Below are positions 5,316 through 61,311 of a DNA stretch of 64,000 bases, in pieces. Under the pieces are notes generated by a model. It had not been told where the DNA came from and ran no database searches. It was given only the letters and a program-made list of their open reading frames with translations. The DNA is from Escherichia phage vB_EcoM_005: sequence record MK295203; one strand, 5' to 3'. A program made the translations under genes and the position numbers. Numbering within the stretch: position 1 is the first letter of the stretch; the number at the start of each line of letters is the position of its first letter.

Positions 5316-5389
5316 GGCCCTGTAGCTCAATGGTTAGCAGCAGTCCCCTCATAAGGGAAAGGTTACCGGTTCAAATCCGGTCTGGGTCA
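5316..5389 (+). tRNA. tRNA with CAU anticodon (Met or lysidine-modified Ile)
   Basis: ggccctgtagctcaatggtt...ccggttcaaatccgg: acceptor stem, D-loop AATGG, T-loop TTCAAATCC, anticodon loop cuCAUaa; no encoded CCA. Confidence 0.7.
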
Positions 5390-5397
5390 TTAACTAC

Positions 5398-5472
5398 GTC
5401 CCGCTGGTGTAATGGATAGCATACGATCCTTCTAAGTTTGCGGTCCTGGTTCGATCCCAGGGCGGGATACCA
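5398..5472 (+). tRNA. tRNA-Arg (UCU)
   Basis: gtcccgctggtgtaatggatagc...ggttcgatcccagggcgggatacca: acceptor stem pairs, T-loop GGTTCGATCC, anticodon loop cuUCUaa, encoded CCA. Confidence 0.75.
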
Positions 5473-21553: not shown

Positions 21554-21760
21554 TTGTTCTTTTGCCTATCATGGATGGTGTGGCTTACTAAAAGAGAGAT
21601 AGAGGTTGTAGCAGCGACGTATAATGCTAATAATAAAGAGTGTCCTAATAAAAATGGGATGGATTTAATTAAAGCGCATTATATGCTTTCCATTACCTCG
21701 CCTATACAGAGGAATTGGGTTGAATATAATTTTAACGACGTGTTCTATTCTTATTTGTAG
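21554..21760 (+). CDS. hypothetical small protein
   Basis: 68-aa ORF, hydrophobic N-terminus. Confidence 0.35.
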   Translation: MFFCLSWMVWLTKREIEVVAATYNANNKECPNKNGMDLIKAHYMLSITSPIQRNWVEYNFNDVFYSYL

Positions 21761-38770: not shown

Positions 38771-40241
38771 GTTAAAGAAAGTAACGTATAAAAATATTAT
38801 GTCGGTAGGCCAGCAACCTATTACAATCCAACTTGATAAGGTCCAAAAGACCTTAGTCACCGGTAAAAATGGCGCTGGGAAATCTACGTTCCTTGAAGCC
38901 GTTACATTTGCTCTGTTCGGTAAGCCTTTTCGTGATGTTAAGAAAGGGCAATTAATTAACTCAAGTAATAAGAAAGACCTTTTGGTCGAACTGTGGATGG
39001 AATATGATGGCAAAGAATACTACATCAAACGTGGGCAAAAACCCAACGTTTTTGAAATCTCTTGTGACGGTGAACGTCTTGATGAATCTGCCAGCAGTAA
39101 AGACTTCCAAGCGGAATTTGAACAGCTTATCGGAATGTCCTACACAAGCTTCAAACAGATTGTCGTACTTGGTACAGCAGGGTATACCCCTTTCATGGGT
39201 TTGTCGACCCCTGCGCGAAGAAAGCTCGTCGAAGACCTCTTAGAGGTTTCTGTATTAGCGGATATGGATAAGCTGAACAAATCTTTGATTCGTGAGACTA
39301 ATAGCCAAATCCAAGTAATCGACGTTAAACAGGATTCTATTACCCAGCAAATTAAAATTTATAATGACAACGAAGAACGTCAGCGTAAATTATCCGGGGT
39401 CATCGTCGATGATGACCCTAGCGACTCTATGAGTGACCTGAGTAATAAAGGATTTGCAATCAAGAATGATATGGCAACCTTTACTAAGGTCGTGAAATTA
39501 TACGAAACCGGCGGTAGTTGTCCTACATGTATGCAAGGATTGGAAGAGCACGGAAATATCCTTACTAAAATTAAGGATAAGAATTTTGAGCTTCAAAAAT
39601 CTTTGGATAAGATTAATGAGCAGTACCAAGAACTCAAGCTCATTAAGGACCAAGTAACCGAACAACGTAATAAAGCGTTGGCTATTAAATCTCAGATAGC
39701 TACTCATAAGCAACAAGCCATTACTGCCGTAGAGAAAGCTAAAAAAGTTAAAGTATTAATCGACCAAGCAGCTGCTGAGTTCGTAAGTAATGCCGAAGAG
39801 ATTGCCGCGCTTCAAGCAGAGCTTGATAAAATCGTCTCTACCAAATCGTCCTTAGTAATGGAAAAATATCATCGTATTATGGAAGCCGACTACGTCTTTA
39901 CACTGGACGAAGAGTTCAATGAGACGATTAAATCACGTGGACGTGAAGACTTTAGTTATGCTTCATTTTCACAGGGTGAGAAAGCACGTATTGATATCGC
40001 ACTACTTTTTACATGGCGTGATATTGCTTCTAAGGTATCAGGTGTTAATATCAGCACGTTAATTCTTGATGAGGTATTTGACAGTGCTACTGACGCTGAA
40101 GGCGTTAAGACCATTGCAACCATCTTGAATAGCCTTGAGGATACGAACGTGTTCATTATTTCTCACCGAGACCATGACCCACAAGCTTATGGCCAGCATC
40201 TTCAAATGAAGAAAGTTGGACGATTCACGGTGATGGAATGA
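38757..40241 (+). CDS. 46: recombination endonuclease subunit gp46 (Rad50/SbcC-like ATPase)
   Basis: Walker A GKNGAGKST, coiled-coil middle, signature/Walker B FSQGEKARIDIALLF...LILDEVFD; matches recalled T4 gp46 ends. Confidence 0.9.
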   Translation: MKTFKLKKVTYKNIMSVGQQPITIQLDKVQKTLVTGKNGAGKSTFLEAVTFALFGKPFRDVKKGQLINSSNKKDLLVELWMEYDGKEYYIKRGQKPNVFEISCDGERLDESASSKDFQAEFEQLIGMSYTSFKQIVVLGTAGYTPFMGLSTPARRKLVEDLLEVSVLADMDKLNKSLIRETNSQIQVIDVKQDSITQQIKIYNDNEERQRKLSGVIVDDDPSDSMSDLSNKGFAIKNDMATFTKVVKLYETGGSCPTCMQGLEEHGNILTKIKDKNFELQKSLDKINEQYQELKLIKDQVTEQRNKALAIKSQIATHKQQAITAVEKAKKVKVLIDQAAAEFVSNAEEIAALQAELDKIVSTKSSLVMEKYHRIMEADYVFTLDEEFNETIKSRGREDFSYASFSQGEKARIDIALLFTWRDIASKVSGVNISTLILDEVFDSATDAEGVKTIATILNSLEDTNVFIISHRDHDPQAYGQHLQMKKVGRFTVME

Positions 40242-40933: not shown

Positions 40934-41632
40934 ATGAAATTCTCTAAAGAAACTCTGAACATTCTGAAAAACTTCTCCGGTATTAACCCAGGTATCATGC
41001 TTAAACCTGGTAACACTATTCTAACTCGTTCAGTAACGGGTGCAAGTTATGGTGAAGCTACTGTAAATGACACCTTTGATATCGAAGCCGCAATTTATGA
41101 TTTGAACGGCTTCTTAAGTATTCTGTCATTGGTATCTGATAGTGCTGAAGTTTCGGTAAGTGAAGACCAAACCACTTTAATTATTAAAGACCAACGTTCA
41201 ACTATTAAGTGGCCTATTGCCGACCCAAGCACAATTGCATTCCCAAGCAAAGCTATTCCGTTCCCAGTGGCTGAAGTTATTTTTGACCTTAAAGCTGAAG
41301 ATTATCAACAGTTGATGCGGGTGTCCTCTGGACTGAGTATTGATACATTTGCTATTACTGTAGACAATGGTAAAATTGTAATCAATGGTTACAAACAAGT
41401 TGATGATAAGGACCTGGCACGCCCATTGTATTCCTTAGTGGTTGCAGACCATGATGGCCCTGAATTCAAATTCATTATTAACAAAACTAATATGAAAATG
41501 ATGCCGGCCGATTACCATGTTCTGTTATGGGCACGCGGTGAAGGTCAGGACGCTCGTTTCGCTGCTAAGTTTGAAGGTTCACAAGCTTCTTACGTATTAG
41601 CTATGGAAGCAGGCTCAAGCCACTCGTTCTAA
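40934..41632 (+). CDS. 45: sliding clamp gp45
   Basis: NFSGINPGIMLKPG..ILTRSV.G..YGEA...D..D.EAAIYDLNGFLSILSLV matches recalled T4 gp45; 232 aa. Confidence 0.95.
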   Translation: MKFSKETLNILKNFSGINPGIMLKPGNTILTRSVTGASYGEATVNDTFDIEAAIYDLNGFLSILSLVSDSAEVSVSEDQTTLIIKDQRSTIKWPIADPSTIAFPSKAIPFPVAEVIFDLKAEDYQQLMRVSSGLSIDTFAITVDNGKIVINGYKQVDDKDLARPLYSLVVADHDGPEFKFIINKTNMKMMPADYHVLLWARGEGQDARFAAKFEGSQASYVLAMEAGSSHSF

Positions 41633-42096
41633 TGTATATATGTTATCATAATACGATAACCAACACTAAAACCAAGTGTGTCTATCATTATTTTGGTAGA
41701 CACCGTGTTACTGCTGAAGAATACTACGGTACAGGTAAGTTTGTTAAGAAATGCAAACGAGAAAATGCTATTACTCCAGGTCTTTGGGAGTTTTGTGTTG
41801 AAGTTATCCATACAGTGGATACGTTTAAAGAAGCCAAGATTATTGAAGAAGAGCTTGTTAAAGAAGGCATATCAAAATATGGTATCCTTTGTGTTAATAA
41901 GAATCCTGGTGGTGATGGCGGTGTGGATTACCACACCGAAGAATCTAAACGTAAAATGTCAGAAACTAGAACAGGAAAATCAAGAATATTTTCCGAAAGT
42001 CATAAAGAAAATTTAAGTAAACGAGCCAGAAAATACTCTGATGTTTGGTCCGAACCTGTATATTCAAATCTTAAAACCATTTGGCTGGAAACAGGT
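41632..42096 (+). mobile_element. GIY-YIG endonuclease-like module, in-frame with downstream gene 44 (no stop codon)
   Basis: CVYHYFGRH...YYGTGKF (GIY/YIG), FCVEVIH..EAKIIEEELV, NKNPGG, then NUMOD3-like HTEESKRKMSETRTGKSR...SESHKENLSKRARKY; ATG overlaps gene 45 stop. Confidence 0.55.
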
Positions 42097-43068
42097 ATGT
42101 TATTAAATGGTTTAACTATTAATGAAAACGACTTCATGTGGGAACAGAAATATCGTCCAGGTACTTTATCTGAGTGTATTCTGCCTGCGCATGATAAAGA
42201 AACCCTCCAAGCCATTGTTAATAAGGGCCTAATCCCTAACATTATCCTAGTCTCTGCTTCACCAGGCACAGGTAAAACTACCGTAGCTAAAGCATTGTGT
42301 GCTGATACAAATTCAGATATGCTGTTTGTTAACGGTTCTGACTGCCGTATTGATTTCGTTCGTAACGAACTTACTCGTTTTGCATCTTCTAAATCTATCG
42401 AAGGTAAGCGTAAGGTAATTGTTATCGACGAATTCGACCGCGCTGGTGTTGCTGAAGCTCAACGTCACCTTCGTTCGTTCTTAGAAGCCTATTCCTCAAA
42501 CTGTTCTGTAATTATTACAGCAAACAATATTGATGGTATTATCGGTCCACTTCAATCCCGTTGTCGTGTTATTAAATTTGGTGAAGCCACTCCAGCCGAC
42601 CAAACATCCATGATGAAAGAAATGATTCATCGTGCTGTAGCAATCTGTAAAAACGAAAATATCGAAGTCGAAGACCTTAAAGTTATTGCCGCTTTAGTTA
42701 AACAAAACTTTCCTGACTTCCGTAAAACAGTTAACCAACTGGACCGTTACTCATCCAGTGGTAAAATCGATACAGGCATTTTGAGTATTGTAATGAATAC
42801 CAATTCGCCTATCGATGAAGTAGTGGCTGCACTTAAAGATAAAAACTTTAAAGAACTCCGTGCATTAGCTCCACGCCATGTCAATGACTATTCCAACTTT
42901 ATTATGTCACTGGCTAACGAACTCTATGGTAAATTGCCTGGACCAAGCATTGTTAGAATGTATGAAATTGTCGGTGAAAATAACCAATACCACGGTATTG
43001 CGGCTAACCCAGAAATTCACATGACTTATCTGTTCATCCAACTTGCTCTGGAGCTCCAATGGCTATAA
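42097..43068 (+). CDS. 44: clamp loader large subunit gp44 (coordinates from internal ATG)
   Basis: EQKYRPGTLSECILPAHDKET, Walker A SPGTGKTT, VIDEFDR, SRC motif QSRC; near-collinear with recalled T4 gp44. Confidence 0.9.
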   Translation: MLLNGLTINENDFMWEQKYRPGTLSECILPAHDKETLQAIVNKGLIPNIILVSASPGTGKTTVAKALCADTNSDMLFVNGSDCRIDFVRNELTRFASSKSIEGKRKVIVIDEFDRAGVAEAQRHLRSFLEAYSSNCSVIITANNIDGIIGPLQSRCRVIKFGEATPADQTSMMKEMIHRAVAICKNENIEVEDLKVIAALVKQNFPDFRKTVNQLDRYSSSGKIDTGILSIVMNTNSPIDEVVAALKDKNFKELRALAPRHVNDYSNFIMSLANELYGKLPGPSIVRMYEIVGENNQYHGIAANPEIHMTYLFIQLALELQWL

Positions 43069-44199: not shown

Positions 44200-46812
44200 A
44201 TGCAAGAATTCTATTTGACAGTCGAACAAATCGGTGATAATATTCTCGAACGTTACATCGATAAAAATGGTAACGAACGTAGTCGTGAAGTTCCTTACAA
44301 GCCTACAATGTTTATGCATGCTAATCCAGAGCAAGCCGTAAAATACATTGATATCTATGGTAAGGGTTGTGTTAAGAAAGAATTCGACTCTATGCGTGAT
44401 GCATCCCAATGGATGAAACGTATGGACGATATGGGTCTCGAAGCCCTGGGTATGGACGACTATAAATTAGCCTATTTGTCTGATACCTATCGTAAAGAAA
44501 TCAAATACGATTCTTCTAAGATTCGTATTGCTAACTTCGACATCGAGGTAACATCTCCTGATGGATTCCCTGAACCAGCTCAGGCTAAACATCCTATCGA
44601 TGCCATTACCCACTACGACTCGATTGACGATAAATTCTATGTATTCGACCTTTTAGTTTCACCTTATGGTACCGTTGAAGAGTGGTCTATTAAAATCGCT
44701 GAGAAACTCCAAGAAGAAGGTGGTGACGAAGTTCCACAAGAAATCATTGACAAAATCGTTTATCTTCCGTTTAATTCCGAAGAAGAAATGATGCTTGAGT
44801 ATCTGAATTTCTGGCAGCAGAAAACTCCTGTTATTTTGACTGGTTGGAACGTTGAGTCGTTTGACGTACCATACGTTTATAACCGTCTGAAAAATCTGTT
44901 TGGTGAGAACACTGCTAAGCGATTAAGCCCACACCGTAAGACTCGTGTTAAAGTTATCGAGAACATGTATGGTGCTCGTGAAATTATTACACTGTTCGGT
45001 ATCTCTGTTCTGGATTATATCGACCTTTATAAAAAATTCAGCTTTACCAACCAGCCTTCTTATTCTTTGGATTATGTTTCTGAATATGAATTGAAAGTAG
45101 GTAAGTTGAAATATGATGGTCCAATCTCCAAGTTACGTGAGACGAACCACCAACGATATATTTCCTATAACATTATCGACGTATATCGTGTAGTGCAGAT
45201 TGATATGAAACGCCAGTTCATTCTTCTGAGTTTGGACATGGGTTATTATGCTAAGATGCAGATTCAGTCGGTGTTCAGTCCAATTAAGACTTGGGACGCT
45301 ATTATCTTTAATAGCCTTAAAGAACAAGGCAAGGTCATTCCACAAGCTCGTTCACACGTGGTCCAACCTTATCCTGGTGCTTTCGTTAAGGAACCTATTC
45401 CTAACGCATACAAATATGTAATGAGTTTTGACCTTACATCTCTGTACCCGAGTATTATTCGACAAGTGAATATAAGCCCAGAGACCATCGCAGGCACATT
45501 CGCTAATGCACCGATACATGAATATATTGCCGGAACAGCTCCGCGTCCTAGCGACGTCTACAGTTGCTCTCCTAACGGCATGATGTACTATAAAGACCGT
45601 GATGGTGTGATTCCTACAGAAATCACTAAGGTGTTCTTACAACGTAAAGAACATAAAGGTTATATGCTTGCAGCTCAACGTAATGGCGAGTTAATTAAAG
45701 AAGCATTAGAAAATCCTAATCTGTCAGTTGATAGTCCACTGGATATCGATTATCGTTTTGACTTCTCTGACGAAATCAAAGCCAAGATTAAAACGCTGTC
45801 AGCACCTTCTTTAAAAGAAATGTTGTTCAGAGCCGAACGTACTGAAGTCGCAGGTATGACTGCTCAGATTAACCGTAAGTTGCTTATCAACTCCCTTTAT
45901 GGTGCACTTGGTAACGTATGGTTCCGTTACTATGACCTCAGGAACGCAACTGCAATCACACTGTTTGGTCAAATGGCCCTCCAATGGATTGAACGTAAGG
46001 TTAACGAATATCTGAACAGCGTGTGTAAGACTGAAAATCAGAAGTTCGTGCTCTATGGTGATACTGACTCCATTTATGTTAAGGCAGATGCAATCATCAA
46101 TAAAGTAGGCGAAGATAAATTCCGTGACACTAACCACTGGGTCGACTTCTTAGATAAATTTGCACGTGAACGTATGGAACCGGCTATTGATGCAGGCTTC
46201 CGTGAGATGTGCGAGTACATGAACAACAAACAACACTTGATGTTCATGGACCGAGAAGCTATCGCAGGTCCTCCACTTGGTTCTAAAGGTCTTGGTGGAT
46301 TCTGGACAGGCAAGAAACGTTATGCACTTAACGTTTGGGACATGGAAGGCACTCGTTATGCCGAACCACACTTGAAAATCATGGGTCTCGAAACTCAGAA
46401 ATCAAGTACACCTAAAGCGGTTCAGAAAGCTCTGAAAGAATGTATCCGTCGTATGCTTCAGGAAGGCGAGGCATCTTTGCAAGAATATTTCAAACAGTTT
46501 AATAAGGAATTTAACGAACTGGACTATGTAAGCATTGCAGCAGTATCCAGTGCTAACAACATCGAGAAATATAATGAAGGCGGATTGGTATATGTACTGC
46601 CACTTAAAGAAGGCAACCCATTCGGTGAAGCCTGTATGGCATGGCCGTCAGGTATTGAACTTCCGATTCAGATTCGTGACCAAGTCCTCCGTTGGATGGA
46701 CTACAACGTACTGTTCCAAAAGACCTTTATCAAGCCTCTGACTGGTTTTACCGAGTCTGCTAAAATCGACTACGAGAAAAAAGCAACATTATTTGACATG
46801 TTTGACTTTTAA
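44200..46812 (+). CDS. 43: DNA polymerase gp43 (family B)
   Basis: exo motifs FDIEV, YNIID; pol motifs DLTSLYPSII, KKRY (GKKRYALNVWDMEG), YGDTDS; very close to recalled RB69/T4 gp43. Confidence 0.95.
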   Translation: MQEFYLTVEQIGDNILERYIDKNGNERSREVPYKPTMFMHANPEQAVKYIDIYGKGCVKKEFDSMRDASQWMKRMDDMGLEALGMDDYKLAYLSDTYRKEIKYDSSKIRIANFDIEVTSPDGFPEPAQAKHPIDAITHYDSIDDKFYVFDLLVSPYGTVEEWSIKIAEKLQEEGGDEVPQEIIDKIVYLPFNSEEEMMLEYLNFWQQKTPVILTGWNVESFDVPYVYNRLKNLFGENTAKRLSPHRKTRVKVIENMYGAREIITLFGISVLDYIDLYKKFSFTNQPSYSLDYVSEYELKVGKLKYDGPISKLRETNHQRYISYNIIDVYRVVQIDMKRQFILLSLDMGYYAKMQIQSVFSPIKTWDAIIFNSLKEQGKVIPQARSHVVQPYPGAFVKEPIPNAYKYVMSFDLTSLYPSIIRQVNISPETIAGTFANAPIHEYIAGTAPRPSDVYSCSPNGMMYYKDRDGVIPTEITKVFLQRKEHKGYMLAAQRNGELIKEALENPNLSVDSPLDIDYRFDFSDEIKAKIKTLSAPSLKEMLFRAERTEVAGMTAQINRKLLINSLYGALGNVWFRYYDLRNATAITLFGQMALQWIERKVNEYLNSVCKTENQKFVLYGDTDSIYVKADAIINKVGEDKFRDTNHWVDFLDKFARERMEPAIDAGFREMCEYMNNKQHLMFMDREAIAGPPLGSKGLGGFWTGKKRYALNVWDMEGTRYAEPHLKIMGLETQKSSTPKAVQKALKECIRRMLQEGEASLQEYFKQFNKEFNELDYVSIAAVSSANNIEKYNEGGLVYVLPLKEGNPFGEACMAWPSGIELPIQIRDQVLRWMDYNVLFQKTFIKPLTGFTESAKIDYEKKATLFDMFDF

Positions 46813-51960: not shown

Positions 51961-53133
51961 ATGTCCGATTTAAAATCCCGTTTGATTAAAGCTTCTACTT
52001 CTAAAATGACTGCCGACCTGACCAAATCTAAATTGTTTAATGGTCGTGACGAAGTTCCTACTCGTATCCCTATGCTGAATATTGCATTAGGTGGTGCGTT
52101 GAATGCAGGCTTACAATCAGGTTTGACAATCTTTGCTGCTCCATCTAAACACTTTAAAACGTTGTTTGGACTTACCATGGTTGCGGCATATATGAAGAAA
52201 TATCCAGACGCAATTTGTTTGTTCTATGACTCTGAGTTCGGTGCTTCAGAATCTTATTTCCGTTCGATGGGTGTTGATTTGGAACGTGTGGTTCATACAC
52301 CAATCCAGTCGGTCGAACAGCTTAAAGTTGATATGACTAACCAGTTAGAAGAAATTACTCGTGGCGAAAAGGTTATTATCTTTATCGACTCCATTGGTAA
52401 TACTGCTTCTAAGAAAGAAACCGAAGATGCTTTGAACGAGAAAGTTGTAGGTGATATGACTCGTGCTAAGTCACTGAAATCTCTGTTCCGTATCGTAACA
52501 CCTTATCTGACCATCAAGGATATCCCTTGTGTAGCAATTAACCACACTGCTATGGAAATTGGTGGAATGTATCCTAAAGAGATTATGGGTGGCGGTACTG
52601 GTATTCTGTACTCTGCTTCTACCGTGTTCTTTATCTCTAAACGTCAGGTTAAAGATGGTACTGAGCTCACTGGTTATGACTTCACACTGAAGGCTGAGAA
52701 ATCTCGTACGGTTAAAGAGAAGTCAACGTTCCCTATCACCGTTAACTTCGAAGGTGGCATTGACCCGTTTAGTGGATTGCTTGAAATGGCTACTGATATC
52801 GGCTTTGTCGTGAAACCTAAAGCAGGTTGGTATAATCGTGCATTCCTTGACGAAACCACGGGTGAAATGGTTCAAGAAGAAAAAGCATGGCGTGCTAAAG
52901 CTACCGATTGTGTTGAGTTCTGGGGACCGCTGTTTAAACATGCTCCGTTCCGTGAAGCAATCGAGAATAAGTATAAGCTTGGTGCAATTAATTCTATTAA
53001 AGAAGTTGACGATGCAGTGAACGACCTTATTAACTCTCGTGTCTCTAAGAACGTTGCTGTTAAATTAGGTGGAAATACCCAAAGCGCCGCTGATATCGAA
53101 AACGATTTAGAAGAGATGGATTTAGATGACTGA
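51961..53133 (+). CDS. uvsX: recombinase UvsX (RecA-like)
   Basis: MSDLKSRLIKASTSKMTADLTKSKLFN...IPMLNIALGG; Walker A-like GLTIFAAPSKHFKT; 390 aa. Confidence 0.95.
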   Translation: MSDLKSRLIKASTSKMTADLTKSKLFNGRDEVPTRIPMLNIALGGALNAGLQSGLTIFAAPSKHFKTLFGLTMVAAYMKKYPDAICLFYDSEFGASESYFRSMGVDLERVVHTPIQSVEQLKVDMTNQLEEITRGEKVIIFIDSIGNTASKKETEDALNEKVVGDMTRAKSLKSLFRIVTPYLTIKDIPCVAINHTAMEIGGMYPKEIMGGGTGILYSASTVFFISKRQVKDGTELTGYDFTLKAEKSRTVKEKSTFPITVNFEGGIDPFSGLLEMATDIGFVVKPKAGWYNRAFLDETTGEMVQEEKAWRAKATDCVEFWGPLFKHAPFREAIENKYKLGAINSIKEVDDAVNDLINSRVSKNVAVKLGGNTQSAADIENDLEEMDLDD

Positions 53134-53455
53134 TTTATCTGATTTAGATAATTTCGTTAAAGATACCGAAGAGGGTCCTAGTGACCCTCGGTATTATGAG
53201 AAATCATTAGATATAATCCGTAAGTCAATGGGTTCTGTTAAGCAGGAAATTATGCTTACTTTACCCGATGGCACTGCTCACATCGTTTATGTGATGAATA
53301 TTGTTATTGAGAAAGATGGAAAAGTGTCGGTTGATTTCGGAACACCTTCCGAAGACCGAAAAGAAGAGCTAGCGCTTCATGTAGAAAAATGTGTTACAAT
53401 GCAAATACAAGAAGAACTGGATAAAATTAAATCTAAGAGGTGGTGGAAATGGTAG
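53126..53455 (+). CDS. 40: gp40-like head vertex assembly protein (synteny)
   Basis: 109-aa ORF between uvsX and 41. Confidence 0.5.
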   Translation: MTDLSDLDNFVKDTEEGPSDPRYYEKSLDIIRKSMGSVKQEIMLTLPDGTAHIVYVMNIVIEKDGKVSVDFGTPSEDRKEELALHVEKCVTMQIQEELDKIKSKRWWKW

Positions 53456-54881
53456 AAACTATTTTGGCTCAACTGCTAGGCAATAGTGATTATTTCACTA
53501 AGGTCTGGCCTTATATGAATGATTCTTATTTTGACCAGGGTCCTGCAAAGACCCTTTTCAAAGAAATTAAAAAACACGTCAATGAATATAATGCAGTGCC
53601 TTCTAAGAACGCATTGAGCATTGCATTAGATAACAGTACGCTTTCAGAAGTTGAACATCAGGGCGCTAAAGAGCTTTTAAGTTCACTGAATGCCGGACCT
53701 GAAGACCAAGAATGGTTGGTTAAAGAGACGGAGAAATACGTTCAGAAAGCAGCGATGTATAATGCAACTTCAAAAATCATTGAAATCCAAACTAATGCCG
53801 ACCTTCCGGTTGAGCAACAAAATAGAAAACTTCCAGGTATTGGTGCTATTCCTGGATATCATGCGTGATGCATTATCGATTTGTTTCGATTCTGAATTAG
53901 GTCATGACTGGATGGATGACTATGAAGAACGATTCAAAAGTTATTCCGATAAAGCACGTAAGGTTCCGTTCCGTCTTAATATTCTGAATAAGATTACCAA
54001 GGGTGGTGCCGAGTTTGGTTACTGAAAACGTATTGTTGGCAGGAACAAACGTAGGTAAGTCTCTTGGCCTGTGTTCATTGGCTGCTGATTACCTTCAATC
54101 AGGTTACGATGTTCTTTATATCTCCATGGAGATGGCAGAGGAAGTATGTGCTAAGCGTATAGATGCCAACCTTCTGGATGTATCGCTGGATGATATCGAT
54201 GATGGTCATGTCTCTTGGCCTGAATATAAAGCTAAGATGGATAAATGGCGTTCAACTGCTACCTTAGGTCGTTTAAAGATTAAACAGTATCCTACTGGTG
54301 GTGCTAATGCCGATACCTTCCGTGCATTATTAAACGAATACAAGCTCAAACAAAACTTTGTGCCGCAGGTCGTTATCGTCGACTACTTGGCCATTTGTGC
54401 ATCGTCTCGTACTAAAGTTTTCTCTGAAAACAGTTACGGATTGATTAAGATGGTAGCCGAAGAACTACGTGGACTGGCAGTAGAGAAGAAATTATTGTTG
54501 TGGACAGCAGCCCAGACTACTCGTGGTGCGAACGTTGCGGCCGAAATCGATATGGCTGATATTGCTGAATCATTTGGTATTGCACATACTGCAGACTTCA
54601 TGTTAGGTGTGGTCGAGACAGAAGAGTTTGCTCAGATGGGTATGCAAATGGTTAAGCAGCTTAAATCTCGTTACGGCGATAAGAGCTACTACAACAAATT
54701 TAAGATTGGCGTTAAGAAAGGAAACCAACGTTGGTATGAAGTTGAAGACGATTCCAACCCAGGCCCGGTGAACACTGTTCGTGAGGCTACAGGTGAGATG
54801 AATCGTCAAGCCGAGGTCAATCGTCAGACGCGTGTTAATAGAAGTGATTTAGACGATTTAGCAGCATCTATCAAATTTTAA
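53440..54881 (+). pseudogene. 41: replicative helicase gp41 (DnaB-like), split across three frames by two +1 shifts
   Basis: segments 53440-53868, 53870-54025 and 54003-54881 each align with consecutive parts of recalled T4 gp41 (..GAIP|DIMR.. and ..GGAE|TG.. junctions); Walker A GTNVGKS in third segment. Confidence 0.85.
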
Positions 54882-57246: not shown

Positions 57247-57777
57247 ATGGGTTCAGGAGGGCCTTTAAGTAGGGCAAAGGAAAAATACGGGCTGGAAAAT
57301 TTCGAAAGAGAAATTCTAGAGTTTTTCCCTAATGAAGACCTAATGAACGAAGCTGAGGCAGCTATAGTAACTAAAGAATTTATTAAAAGACCCGATGTTT
57401 ATAATGCTGTGCCGGGCGGCAGAAGTTTTAGAGTAGGCCCGACGGAAAATTATGATTCTAAACGGCATTCAGAAGTCCAGATAAAAAGCTGGGATAATCC
57501 TGAAAAAAGGGCCAAGCAAGCCAAAACTATAAAAGCTATCGCATGGAAAGAATGGGATAATTTAGAGGAAGTAAAAATCCGACATAAAGAATCCTGCAGT
57601 AAAGCACAAAGAAAACATAAAGCCTGGAAAGATTATAATGTATTAAAAGAGATTTGGGTTAAATTAGGAAAACCTGGATACGGTAGGTTTAATAATGAAT
57701 TAATTAAGCTTGGTTACGAAAAAAGAAATTACCAAAGAATGGTAGATGCTTTTAATAAAGAGGAAGAACTAGTATGA
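57247..57777 (+). pseudogene. GIY-YIG homing endonuclease, N-terminally truncated
   Basis: begins at the YIG half (KYMGSGG...GLENFEREILEFF) with no GIY strand upstream; C-terminal module shared with the two HNH endonucleases. Confidence 0.5.
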
Positions 57778-58041
57778 GTTTTGTAGACAGAGAATTTGCT
57801 TTAAGAGCTTTTCAAACACTGCCAAAATTTAGACAAGTTACCGGAAGCGATTTTAAGCTTAACGCAAGGTGCCCTATTTGTGGTGACTCACAGAAAGACG
57901 AACATAAAGCTCGTTTTTGGGCTTATCCTGTGAATGATGGTGGCATTATGTTGCACTGCTTCAATTGCGATGCTAGTTTAGGAATTAAGAAGTATCTATA
58001 CGAATACGAGCCTGATTTATATCGTTAAGATGCCTGTCATC

Positions 58042-58245
58042 GAAAAGCTTAATTTCTGTGAACGATTAGATAGAATGCCAAACGACCATCCTATTATCAA
58101 ATATGTGACACTACGTTGCATTCCTGAAAACAAATGGAATCGTGAAAAGCTTAATTTCTGTGAACGATTAGATAGAATGCCAAAGGACCATCCTATTATC
58201 AAATATGTAACACTACGTTGCATTCCTGAAAACAAATGGAATCGC
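58042..58245 (+). repeat. tandem duplication, 2 x 102 bp (in-frame, 34 codons)
   Basis: 58042-58143 and 58144-58245 differ at ~3 positions. Confidence 0.9.
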
Positions 58246-58248
58246 TTA

Positions 58249-58597
58249 TGGTTTACTAAAGAATGGCCGGCATTGGTGAACTCTGTCAATCCAGGGACCT
58301 ATTCTAAATTGAAATGCCTGAGCCTCGTTTGGTTATTCCAATTTTCAATAAGAATAAACAAATTGAAAGTTTTCAGGGTCGAGCCTTACGTAAAGATGCT
58401 CCACAAAAATATATTACAATACGTTGTGGTTTACTAAAGAATGGCCGGCATTAGTTAACTCTGTGAATCCAGGGACCTATTCTAAAGAAATGCCTGAACC
58501 TCGTTTGGTTATTCCAATTTTCAATAAGAATAAACAAATTGAAAGTTTTCAGGGTCGAGCCTTACGTAAAGATGCTCCACAAAAATATATTACAATA
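58249..58597 (+). repeat. tandem duplication, 2 x ~172 bp, copies differ by a 2-nt indel
   Basis: 58249-58421 and 58427-58597; first copy has ctaaattgaaatg vs ctaaagaaatg. Confidence 0.9.
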
Positions 58598-58693
58598 AGT
58601 TGGTGTGGGTAATGGAAGGCCCTATTGACTCTTTGTTTGTTCCGAATGCAATAGCAATTACTGGCGGGTCGTTGGACTTGGCTATGGTTCCAT

Positions 58694-58788
58694 GTAAAGA
58701 AACTCGTGCCTGGGTAATGGACAATGAACCCCGCCATCCGTTGTAAAGAAACACGTGCCTGGGTAATGGACAATGAACCCCGCCATCC
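58694..58788 (+). repeat. tandem duplication, 2 x 46 bp with 49-bp period (frameshifting)
   Basis: gtaaagaaac(t/a)cgtgcctgggtaatggacaatgaaccccgccatcc at 58694 and 58743. Confidence 0.9.
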
Positions 58789-58817
58789 TGACACAATTAA
58801 GCGTATGCAACGATTAG

Positions 58818-59471
58818 TTGATGCTGGCGAAAGGGTTCTATTCTGGGACAAGAGGAAAATTAAGAGGTTCTAAGCGGTCTTTATCATATTATACGGAAGA
58901 ACACCATGTTATACCTAGATGTATGAATGGTTCTGATGATAAAAACAATTTAGTTGCTTTATTGCCAAGAGAACACTTTGTAGCTCATAGGCTTTTAACA
59001 AAAATATATCCCGAAGTAAAAGGTCTACATTATGCTGTTAATTTAATGAGATATAATAAAGGAGTTAAATTAACTAGTAGAACTATAGCCACGTTAAGAG
59101 AAAATAACGCTAAAGCATTTTCAGGAAAAAATAACCCGATGTTTGGTAAACCTTCCTGGATTAGAGGGATGAAAACTCCTGAAGAAACTAAAGCCAAAAT
59201 GCGCCTGGCTCATAAAGATAAAATTATATCTGATGAAGCCAAGGCCAATATGAGTAAAGCTAGAAAAGGAAGATTTAGTGGTAAAGATTCCCCTAGATAT
59301 GGTTTGCCAAATCCTAGGCGTGGAGAAATATGGAATAGTTACGATATGCTTTATGAATTATGGGTTTACAATAATAAACCTAAACGCACCAAATTTAATA
59401 AAATAGCTGTTGATAATGGATATCCTGATATTTGTTATCGACGAATGATAGAAAACTTTAATAGGAAATAA
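58818..59471 (+). CDS. HNH homing endonuclease (Mob-like); 5' end uncertain
   Basis: HNH motif EEHHVIPRCMNGSDDKNNLVALLPREHFVAH; NUMOD-like repeats; track ORF start overlaps primase-derived sequence. Confidence 0.65.
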   Translation: MMLAKGFYSGTRGKLRGSKRSLSYYTEEHHVIPRCMNGSDDKNNLVALLPREHFVAHRLLTKIYPEVKGLHYAVNLMRYNKGVKLTSRTIATLRENNAKAFSGKNNPMFGKPSWIRGMKTPEETKAKMRLAHKDKIISDEAKANMSKARKGRFSGKDSPRYGLPNPRRGEIWNSYDMLYELWVYNNKPKRTKFNKIAVDNGYPDICYRRMIENFNRK

Positions 59472-59636: not shown

Positions 59637-60056
59637 ATGGCACACTTTAACGAATGCGCAAACCTGATTGCTGGTGTTGATAAAGCTGAGGAAGCTTATT
59701 TTAATGCTCTGATTCACGAAGATAAGGACCCTCTGCAGGTTATGTTGCGTGAACAGAAAGATTGTATTGACGATGAATTCCGTGAACTTCTGACTTCCCT
59801 CGGTGAAATGTCTAAAGGTGAGAAAGATGCATCTGCTGTATGGAAAAAATGGAAAGCCCGTTACCCGGAAGCACAAGCCAAACCTATTTCAGAAATGTCT
59901 CCTGAAGACCAGCTTGAAATTAAATTTGAACTCATTGATATTATGCACTTCGTATTCAATATGGCTATTGGCTTGAATATGTCGGCTGAAGAAATGTTTA
60001 AACTTTATTACCTGAAAAATAAACACAACTTTGAACGCCAGGACAATGGATATTAA
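59637..60056 (+). CDS. 56: dCTP pyrophosphatase gp56 copy A (MazG-like), apparently lacking a middle segment
   Basis: MAHFNECA..I.GVDKA...DPLQVML then REQKDCIDDEFRELLTSLGEMS.GEK.ASAVWKKWKARY...EMSPEDQLEIKFEL.D..HFV.NM..GL.M.AEE.FKLYYLKNK.NF.RQD.GY, matching recalled T4 gp56 ends. Confidence 0.75.
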   Translation: MAHFNECANLIAGVDKAEEAYFNALIHEDKDPLQVMLREQKDCIDDEFRELLTSLGEMSKGEKDASAVWKKWKARYPEAQAKPISEMSPEDQLEIKFELIDIMHFVFNMAIGLNMSAEEMFKLYYLKNKHNFERQDNGY

Positions 60057-60106
60057 TTTCAAATCCGTTCTTAAAGAAAAGTTCCCGCAATGGGAACTTT
60101 TAGAAG
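60008..60106 (+). repeat. 99-bp direct repeat, copy 1 (3' end of dCTPase copy A plus junction)
   Basis: identical to 60430-60528. Confidence 0.9.
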
Positions 60107-60480
60107 ATAAACCTGAATATAACCGTCATCCTGATGACTTGGCTACTGCAGGTGAAGTTGTTGATTGGTTGCGCAATCAGAAAGATTATATTGATGATGA
60201 ATTCCGCGAACTTCTGACTTCTCTTGGTGGCATGAGCAATGGCGAAAAAGATGCGAGCGCTGTATGGAAGCCTTGGAAAGCTCAACATGCTGAACGTCGT
60301 GAAACCCTGATTAACGATTTGTCTCCTGAAGACCAGCTCGAAATTAAATTCGAAATGATTGATATTCTGCACTTTGTTCTGAATATGTTCCAAGGTCTTG
60401 GACTGACTGCTGAAGAAATCTTTAAACTGTATTACCTGAAAAATAAACACAACTTTGAACGCCAGGACAATGGATATTAA
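60046..60480 (+). CDS. dCTP pyrophosphatase gp56 copy B (diverged paralog/allele), lacking the N-terminal segment
   Basis: YNRHPDDLATAGEVVDWLRNQKDYIDDEFRELLTSLG... ; ~75 percent nt identity to copy A body, identical 99-bp 3' end. Confidence 0.7.
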   Translation: MDINFKSVLKEKFPQWELLEDKPEYNRHPDDLATAGEVVDWLRNQKDYIDDEFRELLTSLGGMSNGEKDASAVWKPWKAQHAERRETLINDLSPEDQLEIKFEMIDILHFVLNMFQGLGLTAEEIFKLYYLKNKHNFERQDNGY

Positions 60481-60528
60481 TTTCAAATCCGTTCTTAAAG
60501 AAAAGTTCCCGCAATGGGAACTTTTAGA
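60430..60528 (+). repeat. 99-bp direct repeat, copy 2
   Basis: identical to 60008-60106; runs into the start of the HNH ORF. Confidence 0.9.
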
Positions 60529-61311
60529 GGTCATGATTACTTAAAAATTATAGATAAGTATAAACTAAACGTCCATACCAAATCTAAAACTGAAGCTCAT
60601 CATATACTTCCGAAGTGTGCATTTCCAGAATACAGCGATTTTAAAATCTCTCCTTGGAATAGGGTGTATCTTCCTATATACCAACACATATATGTTCATT
60701 ATCTTTTGTGCTCAACTAAGGTGTCGGGTTTGCTTAATGCATTCCAGAGAATGACACTAACAAATAGTGCCCAGTTTAAGAAGCTTTCTGATTTAGAGAA
60801 AGACCTTACTATTAAGTTATGGGCCGATAAACGTGGGGAGTGGATAGAGCAAGACATTCTCCGTAAAAGAAAATCCTTTATGTATTCTAATTTTGATTTC
60901 TGGTATAATGACTGGATTTCGCGGGATATGCCTCGCTATCGAAGATATTGGGGAGTTTTGGTTGAAGAAAATAATCCGGAAGTTTTAGGTACCCACAAAA
61001 ATAGTTTATTGACAGTGGTAAAAGATTTTTGTTTGAGATACGCAGAAGAACATAATTTATCTGAAGAAGAAGTTTTGAGTCTTCAAAAATTAAAACAGTC
61101 TTCAGAAAAAGCTTTAAAAGATAAAGGAAAAACTTTAAGTAAAACTGCTAGAGGCAATCAACTCAAATGGAATTATGAAACTGAGCTTAGGAATTTATGG
61201 ATTGCTAATAACAAACCAAAATATGTGAATTTCAGAAAGCTAGTGGTTAGCTTAGGCTACCCGGATGAAAATTATATAAACATGATAAAGAGGTTTGAAA
61301 ATGGGTTCTGA
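60514..61311 (+). CDS. HNH homing endonuclease (Mob-like)
   Basis: HNH motif EAHHILPKC...NRVYLPIYQHIYVHY; C-terminal module similar to the 58818 endonuclease; ATG lies inside the 99-bp repeat. Confidence 0.65.
   Translation: MGTFRGHDYLKIIDKYKLNVHTKSKTEAHHILPKCAFPEYSDFKISPWNRVYLPIYQHIYVHYLLCSTKVSGLLNAFQRMTLTNSAQFKKLSDLEKDLTIKLWADKRGEWIEQDILRKRKSFMYSNFDFWYNDWISRDMPRYRRYWGVLVEENNPEVLGTHKNSLLTVVKDFCLRYAEEHNLSEEEVLSLQKLKQSSEKALKDKGKTLSKTARGNQLKWNYETELRNLWIANNKPKYVNFRKLVVSLGYPDENYINMIKRFENGF

Follow-up and report, generated by a model that had tools for sequence, protein, structure and literature searches.

Protein gp41 of phage T4 is a DnaB-like replicative helicase, and in T4-type phages its gene belongs to the conserved uvsX-40-41 neighbourhood. 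In the genus Dhakavirus (the JS98/IME08 group), the annotations of KIT01, WG01, and SHP1 show gene 41 as one ORF of 1431 nt and 476 codons, while JS98 has the same ORF with a later start. Two ways are known of reading a protein across an interruption of the frame that bear on the locus described here, namely, programmed +1 ribosomal frameshifting of the prfB/RF2 type and translational bypassing, which T4 uses in gene 60. Sequence records, in turn, may carry join artefacts arising from de Bruijn-graph assembly or gap closing. In the record considered here, gene 41 is cut into three frames by two extra bases, and these bases are very probably of the latter origin.

The whole stretch of DNA that was analysed (64 kb, hereafter the window) comprises the region of replication and early genes in a T4-type phage belonging to Dhakavirus. 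Its best public DNA matches are KIT01, IME08, and WG01, with 96–97% identity. The T4-type neighbourhood is present in the window, where the genes follow in the order uvsX (51961–53133), gene 40 (53126–53455), gene 41, a small ORF, and dmd. Contigs encoding an identical UvsX or an identical 557-aa protein share only 92–97% DNA identity with the window and are free of the lesions described below. As to the tRNA genes, only two (Met-CAT and Arg-TCT) are found in the window, at 5316–5472, while IME08 has three (Arg, Asn, and Met) at the matching place.

Gene 41 of the window (53449–54881) is 1433 nt long, compared with 1431 nt in every relative. The first-pass annotation, made from the letters alone, had proposed that the homology to T4 gp41 is continuous and jumps frame twice because of two single-nucleotide insertions. 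Alignment with KIT01, WG01, SHP1, and JS98 indeed shows exactly two of them, and the positions and expected codons (P D I and G T E) given at that stage are correct. Instead of a single uninterrupted ORF for gp41, the window contains three ORFs in three frames, and the helicase is encoded in three colinear pieces in frames 1, 2, and 0 (Table 1). Since the pieces taken together follow T4 gp41 colinearly, the match cannot be ascribed to chance similarity. Insertion 1 is ATTCC[T]GGATATC at 53853/53854, with CCT+[G]+GAT being an equally good reading; all relatives have CC(G/A)GATATC at this site. Insertion 2 is TTTGG[T]TACTG at 54019/54020. The annotation had put about 160 bp between the two insertions; they do bracket a block, but its actual size is 165 nt.

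Table 1. Positions of the gene 41 pieces, of the related 165-nt blocks, and of the deletion joints in the window.
Feature	Position	Strand	Frame	Remarks
ORF 1 of gene 41	53440/53449..53868	+	1	
ORF 2 of gene 41	53690..54025	+	2	
ORF 3 of gene 41	54003..54881	+	0	
Gene 41 codons 1–135 (gp41, DnaB-like replicative helicase)	53449..53853	+	1	tblastn with WG01 gp41, 99% identity
First extra base	53854	+	+1	G after CCT, or T at 53853 within CCGGAT
Gene 41 codons 136–190	53855..54019	+	2	exactly 165 nt (55 codons); tblastn with WG01 gp41, 100% identity
Premature TGA ending ORF 1	53866..53868	+		4 codons past insertion 1
Second extra base	54020	+	shifted further by 1	T in GGT[T]ACT
Premature TGA ending the middle ORF	54023..54025	+		1 codon past insertion 2
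Gene 41 codons 191–476 and stop	54021..54881	+	0	tblastn with WG01 gp41 (54021–54878), 100% identity
165-nt block in small ORF (WG01_102-like, 92 codons), codons 31–85	21590..21754	+		alignment
165-nt block in primase (gene 61), codons 118–172	58144..58308	+		tblastn comparison
gp43, joint of the private 99-nt deletion	46586..46587	+		equivalent of RB69 residues 797–829 removed
Deletion joints 1–6	13142/13144, 15049/15050, 19927/19929, 22138/22140, 23752/23754, 23869/23872			
Deletion joints 7–12	24613/24614, 27012/27013, 28541/28543, 29883/29885, 30452/30456, 32919/32923			
Deletion joints 13–18	39397/39399, 39875/39876, 44016/44018, 46586/46587, 51604/51608, 62809/62813			
Further deletion joints	11520/11522 and 59744			listed beside the 18

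Removal of 53854 and 54020 restores a 1431-nt ORF encoding a 476-aa protein, which aligns end to end (residues 1–476) with residues 1–475 of T4 gp41 (PDB 8DTP; E 7.6e-208). The DnaB_C domain (Pfam PF03796) is recognised in the gene 41 product with 44.8 bits at a cutoff of 27, and the Walker A motif AGTNVGKS is encoded at approximately 54036–54059, in the third piece. When the repaired gene is compared with 12 relatives, 40–75 synonymous codon differences are found and only 1–3 non-synonymous ones, of which one is the ATG-versus-GTG start codon. For the 165-nt block (codons 136–190), the same comparison gives 1–11 synonymous codon differences (1–9 in 11 of the 12 relatives) and no amino-acid change, except one in a single relative (L010). 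The SNPs private to the window number 10 in gene 41, which is within the range of other strains (0–16). Eight of the ten are synonymous third-position changes; the remaining two are in the start codon and in CCT at codon 135, the latter depending on where insertion 1 is placed. The divergence being synonymous only, gene 41 must therefore have been under selection up to “now”; judging from this pattern of substitutions, the repaired gene was under strong purifying selection until the two bases appeared. Because this selection lasted until their appearance, the insertions are either extremely recent or not real. Synonymous recoding in silico, as a source of 100% protein identity combined with about 96% DNA identity, has been considered and rejected: non-synonymous changes do occur in neighbouring genes, other strains have the same variants, and the number of private SNPs is normal.

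Two further features of gene 41 deserve mention. The start codon at 53449 is ATG in the window and GTG in all 12 aligned relatives. Besides, divergence from the closest relatives rises from about 1% before insertion 2 to about 4% within 20–50 nt after it. This rise, at 54020–54070, is suggestive of a switch of the source strain (haplotype) at the joint, and natural mosaicism could give the same picture.

The insertions are private to the window. Both are absent in the 12 aligned relatives, including eight contigs whose UvsX is 100% identical to that of the window, as well as in MN04, Ec2-ASingh, and three IMG/VR contigs, namely, those with gene 41 complete in the fetched locus. Every relative inspected has one complete gene 41 ORF, of 476 aa in the close ones. 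Searches with exact and degenerate patterns for the insertion 1 allele gave no matches in IMG/VR, JGI metagenomes, and GTDB genomes, and a pattern search for the insertion 2 allele gave none in JGI metagenomes; the uninserted allele, used as a control, was found six times, in six IMG/VR contigs. No record of the truncated 139-aa product was found, a 33-mer specific to the strain had no match in IMG/VR, and a literature search retrieved no paper describing a frameshifted gene 41 in Dhakavirus.

Comparison of the whole window with IME08 and WG01 places the two insertions among many other lesions. Three unrelated genes (gene 41, a small ORF, and the primase gene) each hold an out-of-frame block of exactly 165 nt, or 55 codons. 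In the WG01_102-like small ORF (window 21589–21755), single T insertions are located after codon 30 and after codon 85. In the primase gene, the block is bounded by the joint of a tandem duplication on the left and by a TT insertion (58309–58310) on the right.

Primase gene 61 as a whole is shredded across 57774–58852 and has lost its 3′ end. About 84 nt after codon 84 are replaced by one base. Codons 118–151 lie in a 102-nt tandem duplication (58042–58143 and 58144–58245) with three differences between the copies, which are thus 98% identical. It is followed by a tandem duplication of about 178 nt (58246–58423 and 58424–58599), the copies of which end in 99 identical bases, and a 49-nt duplication is present at 58688–58785. 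The dCTPase gene 56, in turn, is represented by two partial, diverged copies at 59637–60056 and 60031–60480. Copy 1, with 62% identity to WG01 gp56, is 34 codons short; copy 2, with 92% identity, is missing its first 39 codons. The last 98 bases of copy 1 recur unchanged in the corresponding part of copy 2. The identical ends of 99 and 98 bases in the primase and gene 56 duplications suggest an overlap length of about 99 nt. Genes 61 and 56 are flanked by three ORFs resembling homing endonucleases (57247–57777, 58818–59471, and 60514–61311), of which the middle one bears NUMOD3 motifs and shares 99.4% DNA identity with the mobE region of IME08. Most of the duplications are likewise located in the region of these three ORFs.

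The most numerous lesions are deletions of constant size. Relative to both IME08 and WG01, 18 deletions private to the window amount to net 99 nt each and two to net 102 nt; they strike the genes for the gp43 DNA polymerase, gp46 (twice, with joints at 39397 and 39875), lysozyme e, NrdC, NrdH, gp56, Vs, and others. For the gp43 joint, 47 phage records match; in each of the best 12, the alignment falls into two pieces that together span 399 nt and, consequently, these 12 hold the 99 nt that the window lacks. As a control, WG01 was compared with IME08 over the same region, and twelve larger length differences were found, none of them of 99 or 102 nt. At 14 of the 20 deletion joints, there are 1–3 bases matching no relative, the 3-nt fillers being GAT, GAT, CGT, and TGT. 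If all joints are taken together, i.e., the deletion fillers and the insertions at the 165-nt blocks, the stray bases are almost exclusively G or T (about 28 of 31 letters). Two deletions, in nrdC (30452) and nrdH (32919), start directly after the ATG start codon, and each is then followed by GAT. When positions are numbered from the start codon of each gene hit, the deletion starts cluster at 4, 4; 16, 17; 107, 109; 371, 374; 399, 400, 400, 401; and 642, 642; random placement would produce far fewer coincidences of this kind.

Two simple sources of the deletions have been discarded. Lost lines of a sequence file would not produce the 99-nt gaps observed, since the spacings between joints are not multiples of 99 or 100. 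Nor have the deleted segments been moved elsewhere in the window, as just a part of one segment, from the gene 56 region, is found again.

Taken as a whole, the window cannot be a faithful genome, since a phage with all these lesions could not replicate. The geometry of the gene 41 lesion is found again in other, unrelated genes of the record and in none of the relatives. As the two insertions are part of window-wide, join-type defects that no working phage could carry, they are to be regarded as a flaw of the record rather than as biology. Thus, with high confidence, though on comparative sequence evidence, the two extra bases would be an artefact of assembly or processing and not mutations of a replicating phage. 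The suspicion of sequencing or assembly errors raised by the first-pass annotation is borne out by the privacy of the insertions, by purifying selection on the repaired gene, and by the occurrence of lesions of the same type throughout the window. It should be refined in one respect: these are not random read errors of the homopolymer type but one instance of a systematic join artefact, which manifests itself in three out-of-frame 165-nt blocks, in tandem duplications, and in the loss of 99 or 102 nt at twenty places.

According to the scheme we propose, a natural Dhakavirus genome would have been stitched together from short assembled pieces with faulty joins. At most of these joins, exactly 99 nt would be lost, often with 1–3 non-matching bases left behind; at some, sequence would be repeated in tandem; and at a few, only one or two stray bases would be added. 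Gene 41 would contain one short piece of 165 nt with a stray base at each end, and for this reason its parts would lie in three frames. The 99-nt unit of the deletions and the identical tails of the duplicated sequences suggest that a graph assembler had produced contigs overlapping by 99 nt; the cause is probably the ordering and concatenation of such de Bruijn-graph contigs, and the source sample probably held more than one closely related strain, i.e., a mixed phage population. Another post-processing step making joins of the same kind is possible, as is deliberate or accidental editing after assembly, the outcome of which would be indistinguishable. Whichever of these versions applies, the frameshifts in gene 41 belong to a record-wide artefact. 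The underlying SNP pattern of the window is natural, and the abnormal part is the set of joins.

Some observations do not follow simply from overlapping contigs, namely, the constant size of the 165-nt blocks and the recurrence of deletion starts at certain gene coordinates. We know of no standard artefact that explains them. A variant in which the joint bases represent SNP alleles of co-assembled strains (the bubble model) accounts for the net loss of 99 nt, but the codon phases do not fit: only 3–4 of the nine single-base joints are at third codon positions, in comparison with about 80–90% for real SNPs.

A further irregularity is seen at 41632–43068, where a single ORF of 478 codons has an N-terminal part of about 160 residues fused onto the clamp-loader protein gp44. 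This putative N-terminal part is homing-endonuclease-like by eye only. In relatives, genes 45 and 44 are separated merely by a short spacer. Either one more faulty join or a genuine endonuclease insertion may account for the fusion.

Programmed recoding, in which two +1 ribosomal frameshifts or short bypasses would yield full-length gp41, might be suspected from the stop that follows soon after each insertion (4 codons and 1 codon, respectively), as in stop-stimulated +1 sites, and from the precedent of bypassing in T4 gene 60. However, the contexts CCU GGA UAU CAU GCG UGA and UUU GGU UAC UGA contain no codon able to re-pair in the +1 frame, so that no shift-prone P-site codon is available at CCU-G, GCG-UGA, GGU-U, or UAC-UGA. 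There is no Shine-Dalgarno-like stimulator upstream of either insertion and no significant RNA structure at or after either site (fold z-scores −1.54, −0.63, +0.43, and +1.12). The window encodes no frameshift-suppressor tRNA, only ordinary tRNA-Met and tRNA-Arg genes, and the shift sites are conserved in none of the 12 aligned relatives, MN04, Ec2-ASingh, or the three IMG/VR contigs. Moreover, the block in the primase gene is closed by a +2 insertion, for which another mechanism would have to be assumed. The earlier judgement against programmed frameshifting is thus supported by the lack of shift-prone motifs, RNA structure, and suppressor tRNAs alike, and recoding has been rejected as extremely improbable. 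A helicase that is genuinely split and works as separate polypeptides, for instance with a C-terminal ATPase fragment initiated at GTG 54003, would profit from the fact that the third ORF keeps the whole DnaB_C domain with the Walker A motif. We find this hardly credible: no usable ribosome-binding site is properly spaced upstream of GTG 54003, the N-terminal domain and the linker would be parted from the ATPase domain, the arrangement occurs in no relative, and the synonymous-only divergence argues for a single full-length ORF as the selected state.

It is also conceivable that the insertions are real and very recent mutations in a defective genome, either a variant that is not viable or a genome that stems from a mixed or metagenomic population and is propagated by co-infecting helpers. 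The underlying sequence is that of a natural strain, with SNPs shared with relatives and a normal private SNP load, and the lesions are younger than any selection that can be detected, in keeping with mutation in the very recent past. Such a genome, however, would also have had to acquire the in-frame losses of exactly 99 or 102 nt, about 20 in number, that affect polymerase, gp46, lysozyme, and further genes; its primase gene would have been shredded as well, and blocks of one and the same size would have been put out of frame in three places. Lesions of fixed size are absent in natural relatives, as follows from the comparison of WG01 with IME08, and we know of no mutational process that yields fixed units of 99 and 165 nt. 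A defective genome is therefore unlikely. That both insertions are real in a viable phage, by way of two +1 recodings at non-slippery sites or of working helicase fragments, has only a minute probability; if true, it would mean a new way of expressing an essential replication gene.

For the biology of the phage, the artefact in the record is of little consequence: the real phage almost certainly has one uninterrupted gene 41 of 476 codons and makes a normal gp41 helicase. It is the use of the data that is affected, as the 64-kb stretch should not be taken at face value. At least 20 genes in the window carry private deletions, frameshifts, or duplications, and calls of pseudogenes, split genes, recoding, or domain loss made on it are likely artefacts, including the gap of 33 residues in the thumb of the DNA polymerase and the missing N-terminus of thioredoxin NrdC. 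Without the reads, the window is unfit for mining pseudogenes, split genes, or domain losses. On the other hand, a fixed 99-nt unit combined with tandem near-identical copies provides a usable signature to flag similar records.

The product of gene 41, once the two bases are removed, resembles T4 gp41 and other DnaB-like helicases in its end-to-end alignment, its DnaB_C domain and Walker A motif, and its uvsX-40-41 neighbourhood; as written in the record, the gene differs from that of T4 in that two 1-nt insertions, found in no relative, distribute it over three frames. With programmed +1 frameshifting of the prfB/RF2 type and with gene 60 bypassing, it shares the stop soon after each shift point, but it has no slippery codon or matched take-off and landing codons, no stimulator, no hairpin, and no conservation. 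The likeness to join artefacts of de Bruijn-graph assembly or gap closing is closer: a lost unit fixed at 99 nt, two larger tandem duplications whose copies end in 98–99 identical bases, a divergence of a few percent between copies, as between co-assembled strains, stray bases left at the joints, and lesions private to the record. The window differs from such artefacts in that its out-of-frame blocks repeatedly measure 165 nt and its deletion starts cluster in gene coordinates.
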